Assembly (NCBI GenBank): GCA_004321885.1
Contig: SCQK01000014.1
Location: 95,464-159,463 of the forward strand
Origin: Patescibacteria group bacterium
Lineage (GTDB): Bacteria > Patescibacteriota > Patescibacteriia > Magasanikbacterales > GWA2-37-8
Length of the DNA stretch: 64,000 bases
Direction: 5' to 3'
Made by a program: the position numbers and the translations under genes. Shown here piece by piece: positions 5,351 through 17,811 of the stretch (the stretch's first letter is position 1; every line of letters starts with the position of its first letter). The notes under the pieces were generated by a model that was given only the letters and a program-made list of their open reading frames with translations, had not been told where the DNA came from and did not search any database.

Positions 5351-7285
5351 TTGCTTATGCCCATAAGACTTTCGCCGGAAGTCAATATACCAGAGCCGAA
5401 AATGGAACAAAAGCCAGTCTCGGAATTATCGCGATTGCGCCATGAGTTGGATTTTGCGGACAAGATAAAAGGTTTTGAGGCCGGAGTGGAAAGTCCGAAT
5501 GATGGGCGGATAATGGCCGATGTTTTGGAAAGGCGCGATTGGGGGCATTTGTTCAGGGAAGCCAAGAAAGGACGAAGAATACTCACGTTCAAGACGCCAA
5601 GCGACGAGGTTTATAATTTAAAGAAAATGAATGACAAGGTTTTGGGCCCGACCAGGGTTGATGAAATCTTTATTTTTCGGCGTAAATTAATGGATGAAGC
5701 GGCAAAGAAAATCGGGGCGAAAGTCGTCATCAATCCGGTTGTCGCCGATGTCATGATTATAGATGAAGCTCGGAAGAATATAACCGAGGATGAATTAACA
5801 GAGATTGCGCGGGAAATTAAAGAGAAAATGACAGCCAAGATTTTGGCCCTGGCCGAGTCGGCGCAAGAGCCGGGCCGTCGCGAGGCGGCCGCGGCCTTTA
5901 TAAAAGAATTTAAGAAAAGCGGGTATGAAGTCAGGTTTGGTGTGGCCGATATTGAAGGCGACGACGAAGCGGCTAAAATTTCGGCTGTCAGCCGGTCTTT
6001 GCAAGCGTGTAAAATGGCAGCCGAGGGCGAATTTGGAAGCGTGTACAATCCGGAAAAAATCCTGCAAACCTTAGAGAGGATTTCGGTTTTAACGGAAGAA
6101 ATTGATAAAGCGGGCAATGAAATTACCGATGCAAATGGCTTTTCGTATTACATTATGATACAAGGAAGCATAAACATAGATGTTTTGCGCATGGCGCGCA
6201 GTTATTCCTTGAAAGTCAAAAAAGGCGACACAGACGGGGCAAAACAGCTAAGCCGTATTTTGGAGTATCTCAGCTTGATAAATAATTTGGATAATGTCAA
6301 ACCCTTTACGATGAAAGAGGTTGACGCGGGCGAGACCAAAAAACGAATAGCCCGCCATGAAGCGTTGGCAGAGAAAGTTAGAAGCGGCGATCTATCGGAT
6401 GACGAGAGAGCCGAGGCGGCCAAAAGCATTGAGAGAGATGAAAAGGACGGCCGCTTCACCGCCAGGAGCATTTTTCACCAAAGGGCTTCCGCGATGAGCC
6501 ATTGCCATTACATATTGATAGACGTTCGCGATATCGGAGTTGAGCAGTTAAAAAAATACGAGAGAAGGACTTTGGCTATCGCCCAGTTGAAAGACGACGC
6601 CACCAAAGTTGAGGCGTATGAGCAGGCGTCATTGGAGGCGGACGATGACACTACGGAAAAATTGCGTCGTTTTAGGGATGTCATCGTGGAGACAGTCAGG
6701 GAAAAATTTTCTTTGTCCGAGGCGGAAGAAATTTTGGGTTTTGTGGGCGGGGACGAGCTTAACTTGGCGATTGACGGCGACAAGTTTGGCCAGGAAAAAG
6801 TGGATGAATTGATTTTTGCGATAAAAGCCAGGCTGGCGGCGGGCGGAGTGGAAGCGAGAATCCAGACAGTTGTTTCACAGGCCGAGAAAGACATTGACAG
6901 CGCGAGCGGCCAGGAAGAAAAATTACAGGCTCATTTTGAATCGCTTAAAATGGCCGAAGAAGGCGCGGATATCGCCAAAGCCGTGGAGGATTTGGAGCGG
7001 AAATTGAATTACTATTTAATTAGGGGAGAAGAATATCCGGAGGAAGGAGTGGCGCCGGAGCGGCTGAAGGACTTTTTGGGCGACTTGAATTGGCTTTTTG
7101 AATTTCAAAATAAGAAGTTTAAGTGCGTTGATTTTAAGGTTGAAGCGCTCGGCGATGAACGGGTCAATATTGTGGGCCGCAAATCGTCTTTGCAATATTC
7201 CAAAAAGGAAATTAAGGCAAAATTGGAGAGTTTTATAACTCCGAACGATGTGGCAAAGATGCCAAAGGAGCTGAAGATGGCGTAA
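5351..7285 (+). CDS. Large acidic hypothetical protein (644 aa), mostly helical
   Basis: Long ORF, coding-like composition, strong terminator downstream. No confident family; see finding on possible palm-like D..D / GGDE motif pair. Confidence 0.6.
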   Translation: MLMPIRLSPEVNIPEPKMEQKPVSELSRLRHELDFADKIKGFEAGVESPNDGRIMADVLERRDWGHLFREAKKGRRILTFKTPSDEVYNLKKMNDKVLGPTRVDEIFIFRRKLMDEAAKKIGAKVVINPVVADVMIIDEARKNITEDELTEIAREIKEKMTAKILALAESAQEPGRREAAAAFIKEFKKSGYEVRFGVADIEGDDEAAKISAVSRSLQACKMAAEGEFGSVYNPEKILQTLERISVLTEEIDKAGNEITDANGFSYYIMIQGSINIDVLRMARSYSLKVKKGDTDGAKQLSRILEYLSLINNLDNVKPFTMKEVDAGETKKRIARHEALAEKVRSGDLSDDERAEAAKSIERDEKDGRFTARSIFHQRASAMSHCHYILIDVRDIGVEQLKKYERRTLAIAQLKDDATKVEAYEQASLEADDDTTEKLRRFRDVIVETVREKFSLSEAEEILGFVGGDELNLAIDGDKFGQEKVDELIFAIKARLAAGGVEARIQTVVSQAEKDIDSASGQEEKLQAHFESLKMAEEGADIAKAVEDLERKLNYYLIRGEEYPEEGVAPERLKDFLGDLNWLFEFQNKKFKCVDFKVEALGDERVNIVGRKSSLQYSKKEIKAKLESFITPNDVAKMPKELKMA

Positions 7286-7299
7286 AATACTTAATACAA

Positions 7300-7331
7300 A
7301 AATAGCCTTGAATTTAGGGCTATTTTTTTGC
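7300..7331 (+). terminator. Rho-independent terminator after 5351..7285
   Basis: Hairpin ATAGCCTTGAATTTAGGGCTAT followed by TTTTTTT. Confidence 0.7.
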
Positions 7332-7419
7332 GTTTAGTTTATCCACAGGCCAGCCCTTGATTTTTTTTCGGCTTTATGCTATGTTGGTTTGTCCCTATAA
7401 TGGGGAAGAGAGGAGACCC

Positions 7420-7995
7420 TACGGATGTGTGCTCGGCGATGGTTTTTTAGAATCGCCGGGCTGAAAGTCCGGCGGGTTGCATGGGACCCGCGTTCGCGGG
7501 AACTATGCTTGGAGTTTTGTTGCAGTGAGCTTGGAAACGGAGTTTCCAGCCCACTGCTTAGCCGCAAGGTCTGGCACGGGATTTTTGGGGATTTGCGCAA
7601 GCTTATCCTCAAGCCAGACCACATAGACACGTATACGTTGAAGCCAGTGTCTATGAGGCCGTTGGTGCCGGGCAGTTTGGCGCCTGATCCCGGGGGCGAA
7701 ATGCGAGTGAGACTCGTTTTCGCCGTTGGCCCGGGCGGGGCGAGCACTGACAGGGCCGGTGCGGAAAACGCGGCCGCGTTAATAGAATGGGAGTGGCCGC
7801 GTTGGTGGCGCAAGATGCTCTTCTTTTTTAAGGGAGAAGAGCAAGCCATGAGCTTGACGCCCGTGGATGACGTTGCCGCGGACACAATCGCGGCAAACAA
7901 ATAAAATTACGCCCGACAGAGCATCAGAGCATCGCCGGGCGAGCACATCAAGGAGAAAGGAGGAAAACCCGGCAGTTCGTCTGACCGGGTTTCGT
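7420..7995 (+). ncRNA. Candidate structured ncRNA (~570 nt) with RNase P RNA-like motifs; identity unresolved
   Basis: Perfect -10 TATAAT at about 7404-7409 with a weak -35. The region is GC-rich and non-coding-looking (the ORF 7425..7904 has a nonsense-like composition). It ends in hairpin AAACCCGG-N12-CCGGGTTT plus a T-run at about 7960-7995. It contains GAAAGTCCGG (P4 5' strand-like) after a P3-like hairpin GGCGAT..ATCGCC, and GGCACGG ... GCAAG..CCA.AUAG resembling CR-III of RNase P RNA. No T-loop, so it is not tmRNA. Confidence 0.4.
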
Positions 7996-10383: not shown

Positions 10384-10444
10384 TCCTTTGAAAATAAATT
10401 CCGGGGTAGCGCTCCGCCAGCCGGCGGAGGTAGCGCAGTTGGCT

Positions 10445-10693
10445 GTGTATACTGTTTACGCTATTTACAATCAAAAAAACGATAAAATTTATATTGGACA
10501 AACAAAAGACATGGCCGAACGATTAAGGTTGCATAATGAAAAAATCCTTCTTGGTTATACTTATAGATTTGATGGAAATTGGAAATTAATTTATAGTGTA
10601 CAGATCGAGAATAGACAAAAAGCTTTACAAAGAGAGAGACAACTTAAAAGTTTTAGAGGCAGAGAATTTATAAAACAATTTATTCCGGGGTAG
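10445..10693 (+). CDS. GIY-YIG nuclease-domain protein (stand-alone, YhbQ/UPF0213-like)
   Basis: VYTVYAIYNQKNDKIYIGQTKDMAERLRLHN is a canonical GIY-YIG motif with Arg and downstream Glu (IENRQKA). GTG start at 10445 with GGAGG 14 nt upstream; the ORF track begins at TTG 10322 inside the promoter. Its stop codon lies inside tRNA-Asn. Confidence 0.65.
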   Translation: MYTVYAIYNQKNDKIYIGQTKDMAERLRLHNEKILLGYTYRFDGNWKLIYSVQIENRQKALQRERQLKSFRGREFIKQFIPG

Positions 10694-10755
10694 CGCAGCG
10701 GTAGCGCAGAGGACTGTTAATCCTTTGGTCGTGGGTTCGAATCCCACCCCCGGAG
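10684..10755 (+). tRNA. tRNA-Asn (anticodon GTT)
   Basis: Cloverleaf by hand: acceptor TCCGGGG/CCCCGGA, D-arm GCGC-AGCGGTA-GCGC, anticodon loop CTGTTAA, T-arm GTGGG-TTCGAAT-CCCAC, discriminator G; no encoded CCA. Confidence 0.85.
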
Positions 10756-10761
10756 CAAAAA

Positions 10762-10888
10762 CAAAAATACTGGTAATATCCAGTATTTTTGCTTTTGCTC
10801 GGAATACACGAAAAAATACGAACGGATTTGGGCGAATTTTAGGGCGCGGGCGAAATTCCCTCCCCACACCCCTTCCTTTCGCCCGCGA
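10762..10888. repeat. Left terminal inverted repeat of island
   Basis: Reverse complement of 15960..16086; spurious ORFs 10625..10924(-) and 15902..16105(+) share the peptide GRGVGREFRPRPKIRPNPFV because of it. Confidence 0.85.
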
Positions 10889-11065
10889 AGCGAAACGGGG
10901 GCTCTGGTGGACAAAAACTGCCAAAGAACCCGTAAAAAATGTCGGCCGAACTTTATGTTGGCCAAAAGCAAACTTTTCTCTTTGATATTGAATTACGATT
11001 GTTAAAGTGATATAATCAAGTCAATGAGCGTCCCATTCTTGCTATCTTATGTATACTATCATACT

Positions 11066-11272
11066 ATGGAAGAAAAGAAAACAATCGGCGAAAAAATAAA
11101 AAAATGGAGAGCGAAGAAAGATTTGACACAAGACGCCTTGGCAAAAAAGGCGGATATTCCATATAGCACGATTGCTAAAATTGAATCAGATGTTATTACG
11201 AGGCCAACAATACAGACAGTGCAAAAGCTGGCCGTTGGTTTGGGTATAACACTTGATGAATTATTAAAATAG
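11066..11272 (+). CDS. XRE-family helix-turn-helix transcriptional regulator
   Basis: IKKWRAKKDLTQDALAKKADIPYSTIAKIESD is a Cro/C1-type HTH. Extended -10 promoter (TGaTATAAT) with TTGAAT -35 at about 10989-11017. Confidence 0.8.
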   Translation: MEEKKTIGEKIKKWRAKKDLTQDALAKKADIPYSTIAKIESDVITRPTIQTVQKLAVGLGITLDELLK

Positions 11273-11273
11273 T

Positions 11274-12155
11274 ATGGTTAAAGGTCACAAAGTGAAAAAT
11301 GAAAAAATCGATAAAAAAATAGCTTTTGGTTGGTATGGCGGTAAGTTTAGTCATCTTGACTGGCTTTTGCCGCTGTTGCCGGAAACCGATCATTTTTGTG
11401 AGCCGTTTGGTGGCTCTGCTGCCGTTATCATAAACAGAAATCCTTCTTTAATCGAAACATATAATGATTTAGATGGCGAGGTAGTTAATTTCTTCAGAGT
11501 ATTAAGGGAACATCCTAACGATCTTATAAGACAAATTGGGCTTACTCCATTTTCGAGGGAAGAATTCAAATATGCTATTGAACACGAAGATGATAAAAAT
11601 CTTTCAGATATTGAGAGGGCTAGGTCTTTTTTTATCCGCGCAAGGCAGGTTAGGACTGGACTTGCTCAAAAAGCTACTTCTGGTAGATGGGCAAATTGTA
11701 AATTAACTTCCAGAGCCGGAATGTCAGGTGCGGTCTCGAGGTGGTTGGGAAGTGTTGACGGGCTAACAGAGATTGCGGAAAGGCTTTTACGAATACAAAT
11801 TGAAAATGCTCCTGCAATTGAAGTTGTAAGGCGATATGATAGCCCACAGACCTTATTTTACTGTGATCCTCCGTATACACATGATTCTCGAGGTGATATA
11901 AATGCCTATAAATTTGAAATGGACAGGGATGCGCATGTCGAACTGGCCGAAACACTAAAACAGGTTAAGGGGTTAGTCGCTATATCGGGTTACGACTCTC
12001 CCCTAATGAACGAGCTGTATCAAGGATGGAAAAAAATCGCTGGGCCAGTAAAAAATGCAAATTCTATACAACAACCTAGACAAGAAATTTTATGGGTTAA
12101 TTATAATATTAATGATAAATCTTTATGGAAAAAGCAGCAAAGATCCTTGATATAA
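11274..12155 (+). CDS. Dam-family (D12 class) N6-adenine DNA methyltransferase
   Basis: N-terminal WYGGK...EPFGGSAAV (SAM-binding motif I) and catalytic DPPY (FYCDPPYTHDS). Confidence 0.85.
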   Translation: MVKGHKVKNEKIDKKIAFGWYGGKFSHLDWLLPLLPETDHFCEPFGGSAAVIINRNPSLIETYNDLDGEVVNFFRVLREHPNDLIRQIGLTPFSREEFKYAIEHEDDKNLSDIERARSFFIRARQVRTGLAQKATSGRWANCKLTSRAGMSGAVSRWLGSVDGLTEIAERLLRIQIENAPAIEVVRRYDSPQTLFYCDPPYTHDSRGDINAYKFEMDRDAHVELAETLKQVKGLVAISGYDSPLMNELYQGWKKIAGPVKNANSIQQPRQEILWVNYNINDKSLWKKQQRSLI

Positions 12156-13246
12156 TTTTGAAAAAAACTAATGGGCATCTAGAAAAACCTTTTATAAAAA
12201 ATAGGGAGATTTTGCGGAAAATAGAATTTATTTCTCATAATATTCAAAATCGAGCCGGCGTCCGCCTTATTATGTCTTGCTTACTGGCGAAACTTGACGA
12301 TCCAAAAGTTGATGTAAGAAAACCTTATACGGAGATTGGCAGTCGTGATAGTTTTTCGGGCAGAACATATGACGAGGCCTATGTCGGCAGTTTTATCACT
12401 AAACATCACTTGCCGTGTAATCCAACAACAGCGTTTTTGACGCCAGCTCTACGTAATAGAAATATTGTACTTACGCCAAAAGTAAATTTAGTCGGCAGGC
12501 CACCAGAAATTTATCAATACGTTCTCGACCTCCTAGAATTAGTATTTAAAGGATTTCTTGCCCCAGCCATTCTGCTTGCGGAAATAATGCGACAACTTGT
12601 TCTTTTACGAGATGAAAATCAAAAACGTATAAAATCTTTGTTAAAGAATCTCGGGAAAAATGGTAGTGTGCCTCTTTCGGGTGAAGACATAATAAAACTT
12701 ATTGAGCAACATTTAAATTGCAAAGGAGCCAGCAGACTTCCCGTACTTATCGTGGCCGCTGCTTACAACACTATTGGAAATTTCATCCAAGAAAAAGTAT
12801 TACCTATCTTTTCTCACAATTCTGCAGATAAACAAACTGGTGCGCTCGGCGATATACAAATTACGTTAATTAATGACGAGAATGTAGTAACTAGTTATGA
12901 GATGAAGATGAAGAAGGTCACAAAGGACGACATTGATATCGCTCTGCAAAAAATTTCGGGAGTTAAGTACAAAATAGATAATTATATTTTTATAACGACG
13001 GATATAATAGATGATTCGGTAAAAGAATATGCGAAATCACTTTATGAGCAAACCGGCGGAATAGAGATAGTTGTCTTAGATTGTATTAGTTTTCTTAGGC
13101 ATTTTATTCATTTATTCCACCGCTTCAGATTGCCATATCTTGAAGAGTATCAAAAGTTGGTGATGGGTGAAGCAGACAGCGCGGTCAGTCAGCCCCTTAA
13201 AGAGGCATTTCTTGCTCTTCGACAGGCAACAGAAAGCGCGAATTAA
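12125..13246 (+). CDS. Putative type II restriction endonuclease (PD-(D/E)xK) cognate to the Dam-like MTase
   Basis: Overlaps MTase stop (translational coupling). GD-x17-YEMKMK fits a D...ExK nuclease core. No family recognised by eye; assignment is by context. Confidence 0.45.
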   Translation: MEKAAKILDIILKKTNGHLEKPFIKNREILRKIEFISHNIQNRAGVRLIMSCLLAKLDDPKVDVRKPYTEIGSRDSFSGRTYDEAYVGSFITKHHLPCNPTTAFLTPALRNRNIVLTPKVNLVGRPPEIYQYVLDLLELVFKGFLAPAILLAEIMRQLVLLRDENQKRIKSLLKNLGKNGSVPLSGEDIIKLIEQHLNCKGASRLPVLIVAAAYNTIGNFIQEKVLPIFSHNSADKQTGALGDIQITLINDENVVTSYEMKMKKVTKDDIDIALQKISGVKYKIDNYIFITTDIIDDSVKEYAKSLYEQTGGIEIVVLDCISFLRHFIHLFHRFRLPYLEEYQKLVMGEADSAVSQPLKEAFLALRQATESAN

Positions 13247-13327
13247 TGCAATAAAATAGTAAAAATGCAACCTTTTTCGGTGTGCGACGTTATATTATTG
13301 GGAGCTAAATATGACGATTATTAAAAA

Positions 13328-13984
13328 GTGTTTATCTTTATGGATATTGAAGCCGAAAAAGAACAAATCGTGAAGGCCCAAAGTAATATCAAGGAGTTTG
13401 CGCCTTTATTTGATGAATATTACCCCCAAATACTTAAATATTTAATAGGGCGTATCCGCAGTGTGGAAATTGCCCAGGATATTGCATCTGTTACATTCTT
13501 GAAAGCCTTAGAGAATATAAAAAAATTTAACTGTCGGGGGATTAGCATATCATCGTGGCTGTACCGAATAGCTACGAACGAGGTCACTACATATTTTAGA
13601 AAAAATAAAACCCTTTCACTCGATGAGATAAGGGCATGTGAAAATTTTGATCCGCCCGCTATCGGCAACCCGTACATTGAAATTGTCCAGGCGCAGGAAA
13701 AAATTGAAAATGATAAAAAATTTTTGAATCTACAAAATGAGATTCTAAAATTACATATAAATTATCAAGAAGTCATAATGTTGCGATATTTCGAGAAAAA
13801 ACAAATAAATGAGATAGCAGAAATTTTAAATAAAAGCGAGGGGACGATTAAATCTCTCCTCCATCGAGGTTTGAAAAAATTAAAAAAAAATTTTCAACTA
13901 CACAACAGTGACGCCAGAACGCAACCTTTTCAAAATAAAAACGTTCTAAATATAGAACAGGTACTAGTACCCATAAAATTATGA
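13328..13984 (+). CDS. ECF-subfamily RNA polymerase sigma factor
   Basis: Region 2 (ISSWLYRIATNEV) and region 4 HTH (INEIAEILNKSEGTIKSLLHRGLKKLK). Confidence 0.8.
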   Translation: MFIFMDIEAEKEQIVKAQSNIKEFAPLFDEYYPQILKYLIGRIRSVEIAQDIASVTFLKALENIKKFNCRGISISSWLYRIATNEVTTYFRKNKTLSLDEIRACENFDPPAIGNPYIEIVQAQEKIENDKKFLNLQNEILKLHINYQEVIMLRYFEKKQINEIAEILNKSEGTIKSLLHRGLKKLKKNFQLHNSDARTQPFQNKNVLNIEQVLVPIKL

Positions 13985-14223
13985 ATGACCTACAGGAGTT
14001 AGAAAAAATGTTAGAGGAGATCGAGGTTCCGTCTGTGGACTTAAATATAAATAAGGAGTTGTTGAAGAGTTACCTATTTAGAAATGAGCGGGTTGAATTT
14101 GAGAGCAGCAAACAAGATAACTCCATATTTGCCCCGCAGTTTGAATTTTTACCTTGTCCGTCATTTACGTATGATTATTTAATTAATGATTTTAATTCAA
14201 CTACATATGTCCTTAGTTATTAA
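13981..14223 (+). CDS. Small hypothetical protein (80 aa), start overlaps sigma-factor stop (ATGA); possible anti-sigma/adaptor
   Basis: ATGA overlap with upstream sigma gene and 17-38 nt overlap with downstream hydrolase. No TM segment and no recognisable domain. Confidence 0.4.
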   Translation: MNDLQELEKMLEEIEVPSVDLNINKELLKSYLFRNERVEFESSKQDNSIFAPQFEFLPCPSFTYDYLINDFNSTTYVLSY

Positions 14224-15169
14224 TGTAACCACACCCGAAGGAATTGTGTTAGCAGCTGATAGTCGTCAAAGCTACCGCAACCAAAAAGGCGCAGCCCGTA
14301 TAGGCAGCGATAACGCTTCGAAACTGTTTAAATTAAACGACCGGATAGCTGTTGCAGCTACAGGCATGGCCTTTTTACCTGAAAAAGGAATGCTTAAAAA
14401 TATAAGTAAATTTATAGAACAATTTAAAAAAATTGAAATTGAAAAAATAGAAAATATATCAGTTAAGGAAACGGCAGAAAAAATTCATGAATATTTCAAA
14501 AGTATATACAAAGTAGAAGACCAGATAAGGGCAATTGAGCAGCAAATTACAAATGATATCGCAAAAAACGGGGGTAAAATATTGAGAACAGACGCTAAAA
14601 AAAATATAGTTATTGTAGAGTTTGAAGATGCAAATGGGAAAAAAGGTGTTGCCAACGTAGTTCTGGAGCCCTTGAATTTCATGGTGGCTGGTTTTAATAG
14701 CAATTTCGATTCGCACGAGGTTTACACGTGTAGAATACCGGGGGGGATAGAATTAAAAAGAAATAGTAGCGTGGATAATAAAGAGTATGGCGCCTCGTGG
14801 GAAGGGCAAAATGATGTGGTAGCGCGAATTGTCTTGGGTTTTGATCCTAGGATAGGGAATATAAAATTTGTACAAGAAGCAGCGGAAAAAATTGGGAAGG
14901 ATCAAATTAATGAACAGCTTAGAAATTTAGAATACGCAATACAATGGGGCACCATGACTTTGCAAGATGCTATCGACTTTTGTGTGTTAATTATAAAAAC
15001 AACCTCAGCCATTCAAAGATTTTCGGATGGCATTAAAGCTGATCCTGGTGCAATCCCTGGCGTGGGCGGCTCCATCGATGTGGTGGTCATCAGACCAGAA
15101 GAGGGGTTTAATTGGGTAAGTAAAAAGAAGTTATCTATCAATGAAAATTGTTCAGAAATAAATTTTTAA
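14186..15169 (+). CDS. Proteasome-beta/HslV-like Ntn threonine hydrolase (elongated, 327 aa)
   Basis: After a short propeptide (MILIQLHMSLVINV) the sequence TTPEGIVLAADSRQS...SKLFKLNDRIAVAATGMA matches the proteasome-beta N-terminal nucleophile Thr plus the Lys33 region. C-terminal GVGGSIDVVVIRPEEG matches the beta-subunit SGG...VxVI motif. About 100 aa inserted between. Confidence 0.65.
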   Translation: MILIQLHMSLVINVTTPEGIVLAADSRQSYRNQKGAARIGSDNASKLFKLNDRIAVAATGMAFLPEKGMLKNISKFIEQFKKIEIEKIENISVKETAEKIHEYFKSIYKVEDQIRAIEQQITNDIAKNGGKILRTDAKKNIVIVEFEDANGKKGVANVVLEPLNFMVAGFNSNFDSHEVYTCRIPGGIELKRNSSVDNKEYGASWEGQNDVVARIVLGFDPRIGNIKFVQEAAEKIGKDQINEQLRNLEYAIQWGTMTLQDAIDFCVLIIKTTSAIQRFSDGIKADPGAIPGVGGSIDVVVIRPEEGFNWVSKKKLSINENCSEINF

Positions 15170-15193
15170 TAAATTATTTTTAACTAATAGTTT

Positions 15194-15838
15194 ATGAAAA
15201 AACCTCTTTATATAATGCTCCATCACTCGGCTGTTTCATACGACAAAAATCCAGATCAATTTGATGCAAATAATAATTACCATAAAGCACAGTGGAATTT
15301 TAAAGGTTCCCTTGGTTTTTATCTTGGTTACAATTACGAAATATCTAAAACCGGCCTGACACGACAAGCCCGAGCAGACGGTGAAGTTACGGCAGCATGC
15401 TATCAAAAAGATATGAACGATGGTAGGTGTATACATATTTGTATGGATGGCCACTTCGATCAAGAAAAACCAACGCCAGAACAAATAGAGGCGTTAAGAA
15501 AATTGCTAAAACAAAAATTCGAGGAGCACAATATCAAAAGAGAGAACTTAATTTTTCATAGGGATTACGCCCCTAAAACCTGTCCGGGGTCTAATTTAGA
15601 CATAAAAAATATTCGCGATCTTGCCACACCGGAAGGCAATGAATTGTACGCAGCCGCATTGACGCTTATGAAAGAGAATAATTCACCAGCTATTTACTTT
15701 TTCGGTTTTGATAATATGTGGCACGGACTTGGGGATATGGATATTTTAAAATCATTAAAAGGAAACTATAATCCAGTAGAAATAATGAAAGTAGAAAATC
15801 TCCCTGATAATATTTCATTTTCAATAGGCAAACAATAA
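15194..15838 (+). CDS. N-acetylmuramoyl-L-alanine amidase (Amidase_2/PGRP fold, zinc-dependent)
   Basis: IMLHHSA ... HICMDGHFD ... HRDYAPKTCPG carries the His/His/Cys zinc ligands of the T7-lysozyme/PGRP family. Confidence 0.75.
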   Translation: MKKPLYIMLHHSAVSYDKNPDQFDANNNYHKAQWNFKGSLGFYLGYNYEISKTGLTRQARADGEVTAACYQKDMNDGRCIHICMDGHFDQEKPTPEQIEALRKLLKQKFEEHNIKRENLIFHRDYAPKTCPGSNLDIKNIRDLATPEGNELYAAALTLMKENNSPAIYFFGFDNMWHGLGDMDILKSLKGNYNPVEIMKVENLPDNISFSIGKQ

Positions 15839-15959
15839 AAAGCTGCGTTTCCGCCAAAGCCGAGCGAAGCTCGGTATCCCGCCGCAACAAGTAGCGTCGG
15901 GATGAAAAACTGGAAATCGTCATTCGTCGGAGATCCCTCCGCCCAAGGCGGGCAGGCAC

Positions 15960-16086
15960 CGCGGGCGGAAGGAAGGGGTGTGGGGAGGGAATTCCGCCCG
16001 CGCCCTAAAATTCGCCCAAATCCGTTCGTATCTTTTCATAAGTCCCGAGCAAAAGTAAAAATACTGGTAATATCCAGTATTTTTTG
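15960..16086. repeat. Right terminal inverted repeat of island
   Basis: See left IR. Confidence 0.85.
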
Positions 16087-16110: not shown

Positions 16111-16734
16111 ATGCTTGGCCTGACAAAATCCGAACTGAAAATTTTAAAAAGACTCAACACGCCCATAAAAATTCAGAATTTTTTGGATACCTTTCCGATA
16201 AATTGGGAAAAGAAAGGCGAGACATACATGTCGCCCGGCCGGTCGCTTGGCGCGCGCAAGATACATTGTTTTGAGGGCGCGCTTTTGGCGGCCGCGGCTT
16301 TGTGGATAAACGGCGAACAGCCGTTGCTTTTAGACCTAAAAGCCAAAGGCGACTTTGACCATGTGGTGGCGCTGTACAAACGAAACGGCTATTGGGGGGC
16401 GATAAGCAAAACCAATCACGCCACTCTGCGTTGGCGCGACCCGGTGTATAAAACCCTGCGTGAGCTGGCCGTGTCGTATTTCCACGAATACTTTGACAAC
16501 AAGTTTTACAAAAAACGCCTGGTCAGTTTTTCCCGGCCGTTTAACTTAAAAAAATACGGCGCCAAGTGGATGGCGGCCGAAGAAGACCTGCACGAGCTGG
16601 TGGATGCTTTGGACCACTGCCCGCACGAAAAAATCTGCCCGCCCAAAAACGCGAAATATATCCGCCGGGCGGACAAAATGGAGCGTCGCGCCGGCCGGCT
16701 GATTGAGTGGAAAAAATCTCATCCGCGTACTTGA
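16111..16734 (+). CDS. Hypothetical protein; possible transglutaminase-like/papain-fold cysteine peptidase
   Basis: KIHCFEGALLAAAAL ... DFDHVVALY ... resembles a Cys-His-(Asp) transglutaminase-like core; weak. Confidence 0.3.
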   Translation: MLGLTKSELKILKRLNTPIKIQNFLDTFPINWEKKGETYMSPGRSLGARKIHCFEGALLAAAALWINGEQPLLLDLKAKGDFDHVVALYKRNGYWGAISKTNHATLRWRDPVYKTLRELAVSYFHEYFDNKFYKKRLVSFSRPFNLKKYGAKWMAAEEDLHELVDALDHCPHEKICPPKNAKYIRRADKMERRAGRLIEWKKSHPRT

Positions 16735-16890: not shown

Positions 16891-17811
16891 ATGCAAGCCC
16901 AAAGCTATCTGTTAATCGTATTCGCCGGTATTATTATCGGTTTTTTGATATTTGACCTGGGTTTTCTAAATCGTCAAAGCCACAAAATTGAATTCAAGCC
17001 CGCTTTACTTCAGTCCATTTTTTGGATCGCGGTCGCCCTTATTTTCGGGCTTTTGATTTTAAGATTCATGGACCAAACCCTGGCCGCGGAATTTTTCAGC
17101 GCCTATGTCACCGAAAAAATGCTGTCCGTGGACAATCTGTTCGTGATGATGCTCATATTCAGCTATTTCGGTCTGGAAGAAAAGTACCACCACAAGGCGC
17201 TGTTTTGGGGAATAATGGGAGCCATCATTTTTCGCGGCATTTTTATCAGCGCCGGCTCTTTCATCGTCGGCCAGTTTCATTGGGTGCTTTACATTTTTGG
17301 CGCGATTTTAATTTACACGGCCTTCAAAATTTTGAAAGACAAAAAAGAAGAGCATATTGATTTCAGCCGCAACAAAGTTATCAGGCTGGCGCGCAAATAT
17401 CTGCCCTTCACCGCCAGCCATCACGGGGGCAAATTTTTCTTCAGAGAAAAAGGCAAATTTTTCTTCACCTCGCTGTTTTTGGTGGTACTGCTCGTGGAAG
17501 CCACCGACATAATTTTCGCCGTTGATTCCATTCCGGCCGTGTTCGCCATATCGCAAAATTTATTCATCGTGTTCACCTCCAACATTTTCGCCATCATGGG
17601 TTTGCGCGCCCTTTTCTTCCTCATAGAAAACGTCTTGCACCAATTTCACCACCTGCAAAAGGGACTGTCCTTTATTTTATTTTTCATCGGCGCTAAAATG
17701 CTTTCCGGCATTTTCGGTCTGCACATCTCTTCGCTTATCTCTTTTGGCATAATCATGTTAGCCCTCGCTTTATCCATAATTCTCTCGGTTGTGTTCCCGA
17801 AAAAGATTTGA
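16891..17811 (+). CDS. TerC/Alx-family integral membrane protein
   Basis: Multiple TM helices with the TerC signature EKMLSVDNLFVMMLIF and a repeated second half. Confidence 0.8.
   Translation: MQAQSYLLIVFAGIIIGFLIFDLGFLNRQSHKIEFKPALLQSIFWIAVALIFGLLILRFMDQTLAAEFFSAYVTEKMLSVDNLFVMMLIFSYFGLEEKYHHKALFWGIMGAIIFRGIFISAGSFIVGQFHWVLYIFGAILIYTAFKILKDKKEEHIDFSRNKVIRLARKYLPFTASHHGGKFFFREKGKFFFTSLFLVVLLVEATDIIFAVDSIPAVFAISQNLFIVFTSNIFAIMGLRALFFLIENVLHQFHHLQKGLSFILFFIGAKMLSGIFGLHISSLISFGIIMLALALSIILSVVFPKKI

Follow-up and report, generated by a model that had tools for sequence, protein, structure and literature searches.

Background

Among the proteins encoded by bacteria and archaea, many are proteasome-like and have no known function. 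Described systems close to the one considered here include extracytoplasmic function (ECF) sigma factors whose anti-sigma factors are under regulated proteolysis, such as sigmaW-RsiW with PrsW/RasP and sigmaE-RseA with DegS/RseP, and regulators inactivated by an adjacent or fused peptidase, as in LexA/CI self-cleavage, ImmR-ImmA of ICEBs1 and DdrO-IrrE. Here, we describe a locus in a 64,000-nucleotide (nt) stretch of contig SCQK01000014.1 from a Patescibacteria group bacterium (hereafter, the window), in which overlapping genes for an ECF sigma factor, a protein of 80 amino acids (aa) and a hydrolase of the N-terminal nucleophile (Ntn) type with a proteasome fold lie in an AT-rich segment beside a tRNA-Asn gene. 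Our best reading of this trio, to which we give a probability of roughly 45%, is a regulator-coupled, and probably regulator-cleaving, protease switch of mobile-element origin.

With the ECF/anti-sigma systems, the locus shares a group 4 sigma factor with predicted autoregulation, a promoter of the AAC...CGT type and a translationally coupled downstream partner, which a protease is proposed to remove. It differs from them in that the partner is a soluble 80-aa protein with no transmembrane segment or zinc motif, in that the candidate protease has a proteasome fold, belongs to the same operon and is itself predicted to be sigma-dependent, and in that the whole unit lies on phage-like mobile DNA. 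The likeness to LexA/CI, ImmR-ImmA and DdrO-IrrE consists of a DNA-binding regulator gene beside a peptidase gene, the partners found elsewhere in the hydrolase family having a LexA DNA-binding domain, and of the position of the module, which in two genomes stands beside an integrase at the tRNA-proximal end of an element. Here, however, an Ntn hydrolase with Ser1 takes the place of an S24 Ser/Lys peptidase or a metalloprotease, it has no homology with ImmA or IrrE, and cleavage is proposed. The peptidase fold is unprecedented in a regulator-plus-protease role, while the logic of the switch is known.

The hydrolase also has catalogued relatives. Fuchs, Alva and Lupas (2021) listed 22 proteasome homologues, including uncharacterised ones 'with multiple insertions' (PMI), and found no informative gene context for the new homologues (PMC8665760). 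As described there, PMI-3 and PMI-4 share with the hydrolase of the window a proteasome-beta core with Ser/Thr1, Asp17 and a Lys, the lack of a propeptide, a distribution over 'other bacteria' (candidate phyla) and Euryarchaeota, and the lack of an AAA+ partner. They are described as having two insertions, a long one following H1/H2 and one that separates H3 from H4, and the two insertions in the structural model of the hydrolase are consistent with this. What differs is the gene context found here, i.e., an ECF sigma factor with a putative mini anti-sigma factor, or a LexA-type winged helix-turn-helix (wHTH) protein. An earlier prediction made for this stretch (hereafter, the original prediction) had found the arrangement unassignable to any described system, which goes too far: the enzyme fits the catalogued but uncharacterised PMI homologues, a match judged by their published description, in which OGZ26396.1 and HDY66466.1 represent PMI-3 and PMI-4, respectively. 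From HslV, Anbu, BPH and Connectase, the hydrolase is set apart by ~140 extra residues in two insertions, by Ser rather than Thr as the nucleophile and by the lack of HslU, ATP-grasp or transglutaminase neighbours at the loci inspected. No AAA+ gene is adjacent in any of these loci, and the protein has 320 aa against the compact ~175 aa of HslV; nor do the hydrolase neighbourhoods contain the ATP-grasp and transglutaminase-like genes of an Anbu operon.

A conserved trio of overlapping genes

The neighbourhoods of nine hydrolase homologues were read individually, together with those of 80 species-level loci, and 102 loci entered a census of promoter motifs. In translated comparison, the window shares only positions 13328-15169, i.e., the sigma gene, the 80-aa open reading frame (ORF) and the hydrolase gene, with three other genomes (L014/L094, L015/L001 and L016/L096). 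The expected co-occurrence of an ECF sigma factor with hydrolase homologues is thus borne out by gene neighbourhood, and the trio is present in four genomes in total among 5.8 billion proteins. Since the other genes of the AT-rich segment do not accompany the hydrolase elsewhere, and since the family of the small ORF has four members among these 5.8 billion proteins, the conserved unit is the trio, and it is rare. This is less than was originally predicted, namely, a module that also took in an amidase and lay next to a restriction-modification (R-M) pair; the conserved part comprises only the sigma factor, the 80-aa ORF and the hydrolase. The features of the trio are as follows (window coordinates, strand in brackets):

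13266..13294 (+): P1, predicted ECF-type promoter TGCAACCTTTT-N12-CGTTATA, upstream of the sigma gene; conserved in all four genomes
13340..13984 (+): ECF (group 4) sigma factor, 214 aa; Sigma70_r2 and r4_2, TIGR02937 at 86 bits (cut-off 42.9)
13921..13948 (+): P2, predicted promoter GCAACCTTTT-N12-CGTTCTA, inside the 3' end of the sigma gene, ~35 nt before the 80-aa ORF; equivalent site in every trio locus
13981..14223 (+): 80-aa ORF, probable soluble, truncated anti-sigma-like partner; found in four genomes, N-terminal resemblance to the membrane partner of the sigma family
14207..15169 (+): Ser1 proteasome-fold (Ntn) hydrolase, 320 aa, with two large insertions; PF00227, AlphaFold2 (AF2) model and homologue alignment

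The sigma gene and the 80-aa ORF overlap in the predicted coupling sequence ATGA at 13981-13984. Between the ORF and the hydrolase gene, an overlap of 17-38 nt had been given; the overlap itself is real, and measured from the corrected hydrolase start it is 17 nt. For the sigma gene, the most likely start codon is ATG 13340, which the public annotation also uses, the alternative being GTG 13328. Its product belongs to a large Patescibacteria ECF family (620 hits, with 44-56% identity among the matches listed), and the sigma proteins of the trio loci are only ~50% identical across genomes. In keeping with ECF group 4, it has regions 2 and 4 only, a promoter motif of the AAC...CGT type and an ATGA-coupled downstream ORF. 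One trio locus (L094) carries a second, divergent ECF sigma factor of 186 aa (7178-7738, minus strand; 26% identical), back-to-back with the trio and with a 269-aa gene downstream. The only record of the window's 80-aa ORF is in the Logan gene calls; in the NCBI entry for the genome it appears to lack annotation.

Fold, active site and distribution of the hydrolase

The hydrolase (TAN32715.1) starts at ATG 14207 (MSLVIN...) and not at 14186; all 39 of 39 aligned homologues begin with MSL. Its length, originally given as 327 aa from 14186, is corrected accordingly to 320 aa. The predicted Ntn/proteasome fold was recovered: the AF2 model (pLDDT 78) has the four-layer alpha-beta-beta-alpha arrangement, and the PF00227 match exceeds its threshold, although marginally (25.2 bits vs a gathering score of 22.4) and over the N-terminal 50 residues only. 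A profile search of the PDB gave an E-value of only about 0.2. The insertions appear in the model as helices at residues 66-120 with strands at 124-152 and as extra helices at 202-247.

At the position 16 residues before the conserved Asp, Ser is found in 80 of 82 loci and Thr in the remaining two, and in 82/82 this residue follows the initiator ATG directly. The Thr1-Asp17 spacing of the proteasome is thus reproduced, although the label 'threonine hydrolase' given in the original prediction does not suit this protein, whose nucleophile is Ser. S2, D18 and K39 are invariant in the 39 aligned hydrolases; the Lys is offset by a loop insertion of 5-6 residues, and K39 may be the equivalent of proteasome Lys33, as judged by alignment only. 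More than 100 columns are invariant among these 39 homologues, which come from several phyla, and distant relatives keep Ser or Thr at the nucleophile position, in one case behind a signal peptide. Removal of the initiator Met would expose Ser1 as the nucleophile of what is predicted to be a cytoplasmic enzyme. At the level of the structural model and the alignment, both the fold and the catalytic geometry are established.

A search of 5.8 billion proteins returned 1429 relatives, of which the best 120 are ~58-74% identical and ~320 aa long, the few named ones being mostly from Patescibacteria. An exhaustive profile search gave 1371 cluster representatives at 50% identity. The family, which includes shorter forms of ~270 aa without the first insertion, comprises at least 1,400 clusters at 90% identity in Patescibacteria, Atribacterota, methanogens and others. 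The 80 species-level loci (48-74% identity) are distributed patchily across Patescibacteria, Atribacterota, Methanobacteria, Omnitrophota, Planctomycetota and other groups, and one metagenome-assembled genome (MAG) holds two hydrolase copies (L055 and L058).

A duplicated promoter motif and the 80-aa protein

Upstream of the four sigma genes lies a common TGCAACCTTTT-N12/13-CGTTATA sequence, which has the form of an ECF-type -35/-10 pair. In the window, P1 is the sole match of GCAACC-N14-19-CGTTA over 64 kb. P2 is found in the four genomes ~35-50 nt before the small ORF, where the DNA motif is kept despite the ~50% identity of the sigma proteins that it lies within. The pattern GCAACCTTT-N12-15-CGTT occurs exactly twice on the coding strand, at two fixed sites, in every complete trio locus among the 102 loci, and it is absent from every other hydrolase locus of this set. 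It occurs once more in L100/L101, where a homologous sigma/partner pair is followed by a further gene and the motif precedes that gene by ~45 nt, and a near-variant lies before the sigma gene in L102. Sigma-dependent transcription of the hydrolase is likely on the strength of these motifs.

These data raise the question of what the 80-aa protein is. It is the only one of the seven genes of the segment with no family match. Ordinary members of the sigma family are followed by a single-pass membrane protein of 266-292 aa, and the N-terminal ~35 aa of the 80-aa ORF align with the N-terminus of this partner (42% over 38 residues). The membrane partner is moreover the best non-self match of the small-ORF profile among 3987 ORFs (E 0.009). 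Because of this N-terminal resemblance to the membrane partner of related sigma factors, we read the ORF, tentatively, as a truncated soluble anti-sigma factor; the chances of that assignment are a little below even.

Partners of the hydrolase across the family

A LexA-type wHTH gene lies directly upstream of the hydrolase gene in 17 of the 80 species-level loci (L063 is included by a Pfam match), as well as in L004. In these partners, an N-terminal winged-helix DNA-binding domain is followed by a variable region, in some cases with a membrane helix at the C-terminus; an S24 peptidase domain is absent from all of them. Their genes are spaced from the hydrolase gene by -17 to +18 nt, the LexA-type genes form the dominant class when upstream genes are clustered, and their loci are spread over several hydrolase subclades. 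The 17-nt overlap with the hydrolase gene is identical in several classes. A LexA domain without a peptidase, next to a separate Ser1 hydrolase, suggests by analogy a 'split' repressor-protease pair. No paper that ties proteasome homologues to regulators of the LexA or sigma type came up in full-text searches.

Two further proteins are lineage-specific alternative partners: a TPR protein of ~392 aa, which precedes the hydrolase with a gap of 27-28 nt in ten Atribacterota loci (L034, L037-L040, L044, L045, L047, L049 and L051), and a small membrane protein of ~118 aa (DUF5518-like), which precedes it in eight loci. The remaining neighbours look incidental. In one Saccharibacteria locus (L003, 6161-7636, minus strand), a 491-aa fusion of a LexA DNA-binding domain, an S24 peptidase and an N6/N4 DNA methyltransferase stands divergently beside the hydrolase gene.

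A C-terminal motif shared by the small ORF (..NNFNSTSYVSSY) and the LexA-type partners (..NNNFTNYVFSN) was considered and rejected, with a profile comparison probability of 0.2. In its last residues, the small ORF is constrained by the conserved MSLVIN codons that share the 17-nt overlap.

Mobile context of the trio

Two of the other trio loci show where such cassettes reside. In L096 (1858-9945), which abuts a tRNA-Arg gene, the trio follows genes for a ParB-methyltransferase protein, TerS, TerL (PHROG E 3e-72) and a large serine integrase; in L001 (2239-8963), it follows a ParB-methyltransferase gene, TerS and a serine integrase and precedes a tRNA-Leu gene, TerL being present in L096 only. 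Both are phage-like integrative elements, and their size of ~7-8 kb suggests a satellite or cryptic prophage of Patescibacteria. A tRNA gene also lies within ~300 nt of the hydrolase cassette in 7 of 60 scanned loci (L025, L029, L033, L036, L046, L052 and L086) and beside the cassette in all four sigma-class loci, a frequency that appears to be above chance. Because of this tRNA proximity and of the genes around it in L096 and L001, the trio seems to form the end of small, phage-like integrative elements at which their regulation is encoded.

A TerC-family membrane protein gene is found within 2 kb of the trio in both the window (16891-17811) and the Magasanikbacteria locus L001 (9345-10265), in opposite relative orientation; the two copies are 74.5% identical.

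The AT-rich island at tRNA-Asn

The trio of the window lies in an AT-rich segment adjacent to tRNA-Asn, as originally described: both the tRNA-Asn(GTT) gene at 10684-10756 (plus strand) and the GC trough were recovered. The interior has a GC content of 0.372, compared with 0.505 in the rest of the window, and is the sole 5-kb stretch below 0.42 in the 64 kb. The segment is also accessory, as was predicted, in the sense that its composition is foreign and its gene content is not common to related loci. Its other features, and those at its borders, are listed below (a dot marks features without strand):

10684..10756 (+): tRNA-Asn (GTT), left border of the island; ARAGORN, Rfam RF00005 at 73.4 bits
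10753..10800 (.): AT-rich hairpin with a 21-bp stem, terminator-like (site 10762-10791); inverted repeat and RNA fold
10763..10887 (.): left inverted-repeat arm, 125 nt, 90% complementary to 15960-16084
10798..10911 (+): left GC-rich structured dispersed repeat, 11-bp GC stem and C-rich 21-nt loop; 85% identical to L099 2333-2447
10988..11016 (+): candidate sigma-70-like promoter TTGAAT-17-TATAAT with extended TG, before the R-M operon; best regional consensus match (10/12), assigned by consensus only
11024..11272 (+): XRE-type HTH protein, probable controller (C) protein; PF01381 (HTH_3) E 3.6e-16, PADLOC 'control protein' 1.1e-08
11274..12155 (+): Dam/D12-class N6-adenine DNA methyltransferase, type II; PF02086 4.6e-21, PADLOC MTase_II 2.3e-54
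12125..13246 (+): candidate restriction endonuclease, overlapping the methyltransferase gene; weak RE_SacI match, 5e-05, 23.8 bits (cut-off 19.3)
15194..15838 (+): Amidase_2 (T7-lysozyme/PGRP-type) N-acetylmuramoyl-L-alanine amidase; PF01510 2e-16, PHROG endolysin 2.1e-15
15904..16049 (-): right GC-rich structured dispersed repeat; 85% identical over 146 nt to L099
15960..16084 (.): right inverted-repeat arm, with the hairpin copy 16057-16084 at its outer end; repeat finder

All seven genes are co-oriented, and Pfam/NCBIfam-type matches agree with the predicted domains of the XRE protein, methyltransferase, nuclease, sigma factor, hydrolase and amidase. The first three appear to be an ordinary type II R-M system with a controller protein. 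As in such systems, the XRE-type C protein, methyltransferase and nuclease genes are co-oriented and overlapping, and nothing is unusual except the weak assignment of the nuclease, a candidate endonuclease by its RE_SacI match and by its position overlapping the methyltransferase gene.

The amidase gene follows the hydrolase gene after 24 nt, with no terminator-like site between them, and is probably co-transcribed with the trio in this genome only. As a member of the module it was rejected: no amidase homologue stands beside any other hydrolase in the ~85 other loci compared, so the predicted co-occurrence is confined to this genome. Homologues of the nuclease and of an ORF at 16111 were likewise found beside none of these hydrolases, and the XRE protein and the methyltransferase have only distant matches at least 1.5 kb away, in three loci and one locus, respectively. 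As the other genes have no homologue beside other hydrolases, the 'four-part' module amounts to three things side by side at this locus: the sigma trio, the amidase of endolysin type and a type II R-M cassette of the ordinary kind with a C protein. In the 207-aa ORF at 16111 (16111-16734), a Cys...His...Asp pattern (IHCFEGALL ... DHVVALY) recalls transglutaminase-like or papain-like folds. This ORF had been put forward as a possible transglutaminase partner of the hydrolase; this Anbu-like link is ruled out by the lack of any Pfam, NCBIfam, PHROG or PADLOC match, by a backbone GC content of 0.508 and by its never accompanying the hydrolase elsewhere.

The inverted repeats that bound the segment were confirmed together with their ~90% identity, their arms being 125 nt long, not ~115, and 5072 nt apart. 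The hairpin reported at their outer ends, AAAAATACTGGTAATATCCAGTATTTTT, is present in both arms; this 28-nt hairpin and a 35-nt core each occur exactly twice in 64 kb, where shuffled sequences give an expectation of 0. The hairpin at 10753-10800 shares 4 nt with the 3' end of the tRNA gene, and 38 nt on the inner side of the hairpin make up the outermost part of the left arm. Each arm combines an AT-rich hairpin with a GC-rich unit, the hairpin on the left doubling as a terminator-like one for tRNA-Asn. The homology of the repeat unit extends inward past the arms (10798-10911 and 15904-16049). A further copy lies in an unrelated intergenic region of another genome (L099 2333-2466, 85% similar over 115-146 nt), which makes the GC-rich ~130-nt unit a dispersed structured repeat; its 23-nt core has this one further match in 241 million metagenome records. 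The left arm folds with a z-score of -5.2, and the GC-rich stem shows one compensatory change from A-T to G-C between the two window copies. The unit may represent a miniature mobile element, or else a small RNA. As a known RNA it was rejected, the arms having no Rfam match at gathering or E-value thresholds, and the repeats were not found in other hydrolase loci.

Just outside the island, at 10393-10453, the 5' half of tRNA-Asn is present a second time, covering the acceptor and the D arm as far as the anticodon stem; this partial copy is 73-79% identical and carries an insertion of 17 nt. It is followed directly by a small GIY-YIG ORF with a GC content of 0.358, which runs into the intact tRNA-Asn gene (10393-10693 region). 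From this arrangement, it looks as if a GIY-YIG cassette was inserted at the tRNA gene and the 5' half of the tRNA was duplicated.

Discussion

The module is conserved, its promoter motif is duplicated, regulator genes are enriched beside the hydrolase, and the composition of the segment is foreign. In the mechanism that we propose for the trio, the sigma factor would transcribe its own gene from P1 and, from P2, the genes for the 80-aa protein and the hydrolase, to which this genome alone adds the endolysin-type amidase. The 80-aa protein, as a truncated soluble version of the membrane-bound anti-sigma-like partner, would hold the sigma factor inactive, and the hydrolase would act as a dedicated protease on the neighbouring regulator, which would be the small anti-sigma factor here and the peptidase-less LexA-type winged-helix protein elsewhere. 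This would give a switch with positive feedback via the protease and negative feedback via the anti-sigma factor, the downstream result in this genome being expression of a cell-wall amidase. The earlier suggestion, in which a signalling protease would act through the small protein to control the sigma factor, still offers the best mechanistic reading. The trio is conserved, coupled and provided with sigma-type promoters. Its separate steps are not equally probable: that the hydrolase cleaves the regulator is doubtful, and it is rather unlikely that the Ser1 proteasome-fold family as a whole represents a new class of trans-acting regulator proteases, a 'split LexA', cleaving an upstream regulator or, in four phage-like elements, a mini anti-sigma factor, which would make a mobile genetic switch out of the proteasome fold.

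As for the DNA that carries the trio, the island, taken as a whole, is an ordinary mosaic assembled from acquired cassettes, and it is probably a remnant of phage-derived origin. That the segment 10763-16084 was acquired horizontally at tRNA-Asn and holds two unrelated cassettes is part of the best explanation and shares its somewhat less than even standing.

Several points weigh against this switch of mobile-element origin. The similarity of the small ORF to the anti-sigma N-terminus is weak (12-14 bits, at an E-value of 0.009 for 3987 ORFs), and neither a zinc anti-sigma motif (HxxxCxxC) nor a Pfam match was found in it. Nor does it show profile similarity to the LexA-type partners, so that a common substrate motif is not established. 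P2 has a degenerate -10 element in the window (CGTTCTA). Many family members have another partner or none that is recognisable (TPR proteins in 10 loci, small membrane proteins in 8, unrelated genes in others), and the data at hand do not separate a protease that acts on the regulator from a regulator that merely controls the protease gene. The phage origin is drawn from two neighbouring elements (L096 and L001); phage or plasmid carriage of the hydrolase was looked for and rejected, as no relatives were present in IMG/VR, INPHARED phages or PLSDB plasmids, and BFVD held only distant proteasome-like folds. Domain and PHROG scans detected no integrase in the island, and no empty site at tRNA-Asn turned up, a metagenome scan with the repeat core giving one unrelated locus.

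A different role for the hydrolase would account for part of these data. In the main rival explanation, which we consider unlikely, it is itself the effector, i.e., a toxin-like, abortive-infection or lysis protease, and the upstream overlapping product is its antitoxin or repressor. That product would be a LexA-type wHTH protein whose tail varies or, at the present locus, the small protein, for which the sigma factor would supply transcription. The whole would be a type II toxin-antitoxin (TA)-like or small defence cassette on mobile DNA, paired in this genome with the amidase for lysis. The architecture is indeed TA-like, in that a short gene for a DNA-binding protein lies upstream and overlaps the gene for the enzyme by 4 or 17 nt, and the patchy distribution across phyla and domains at 50-74% identity, the two copies in one MAG and neighbours that are often R-M genes, integrases or tRNAs point the same way. 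The only detectable targets of the sigma factor are its own operon and the hydrolase operon, so that the hydrolase looks like the output of the circuit, and in this genome an endolysin-type amidase follows directly downstream. However, that amidase is found only here, neither the hydrolase nor the 80-aa ORF has a PADLOC match, and the Pfam matches of the hydrolase are not to toxin families. Many loci moreover lack a plausible antitoxin or lie among housekeeping genes (ftsZ and nrdR in L005), and more than 100 invariant columns in 39 homologues would be unusual for a conflict effector.

Two other explanations are considerably less probable. The first takes the seven genes and the inverted repeats as one mobile integrated defence or lysis unit, transposon-like or invertible; the 125-nt repeats flank the AT-rich interior perfectly, the genes are co-oriented and tightly packed, and the repeat element, being present in another genome, may itself be mobile. 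This improbable explanation, and with it the view of the repeats as the bounds of a mobile unit, is contradicted by the lack of transposase, integrase and invertase domains in Pfam, NCBIfam-type and PHROG scans of the island proteins, by the lack of a target-site duplication (the flanks are ...CAAAAAC and TGTTACT...) and by the dispersal of the GC-rich part singly elsewhere. Apart from its inverted repeats, the segment thus has neither the flank duplication nor the transposase domain of a transposon or miniature inverted-repeat transposable element. A 41-nt direct repeat with the tRNA 3' end, considered as attL/attR, follows entirely from the palindromic hairpin that the inverted repeat contains and was not accepted, and the three other genomes share the sigma trio only, not the other four genes or the repeats. 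Slightly less probable again is an adjacency without functional meaning, with the hydrolase as a housekeeping peptidase of small-genome prokaryotes, which would agree with the diverse contexts, with the many loci lacking a recurring partner and with the uninformative context reported by Fuchs et al. 2021 (PMC8665760). It leaves unexplained the same-orientation LexA-type wHTH gene directly upstream in 17/80 loci, a domain that is rare in any genome, as well as the identical 17-nt overlap in several classes, the patchy distribution across domains and a duplicated sigma-type promoter that lies within coding sequence and is nevertheless kept in four genomes.

The regulator-coupled switch thus remains our preferred reading. 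The two contexts described here, the sigma trio operon and the coupling to LexA-type genes in about a fifth of the species-level loci, are the first gene-context clue for an orphan family of proteasome homologues, and they turn 'function unknown' into the concrete question of whether a Ser1 hydrolase cleaves or binds the neighbouring regulator. If the reading is true, it would provide a first function for any of the 22 homologues catalogued in 2021 and reveal a regulatory device of mobile elements in candidate-phyla bacteria, where very little is known about such devices, and it would represent a new way to build a proteolytic transcription switch.

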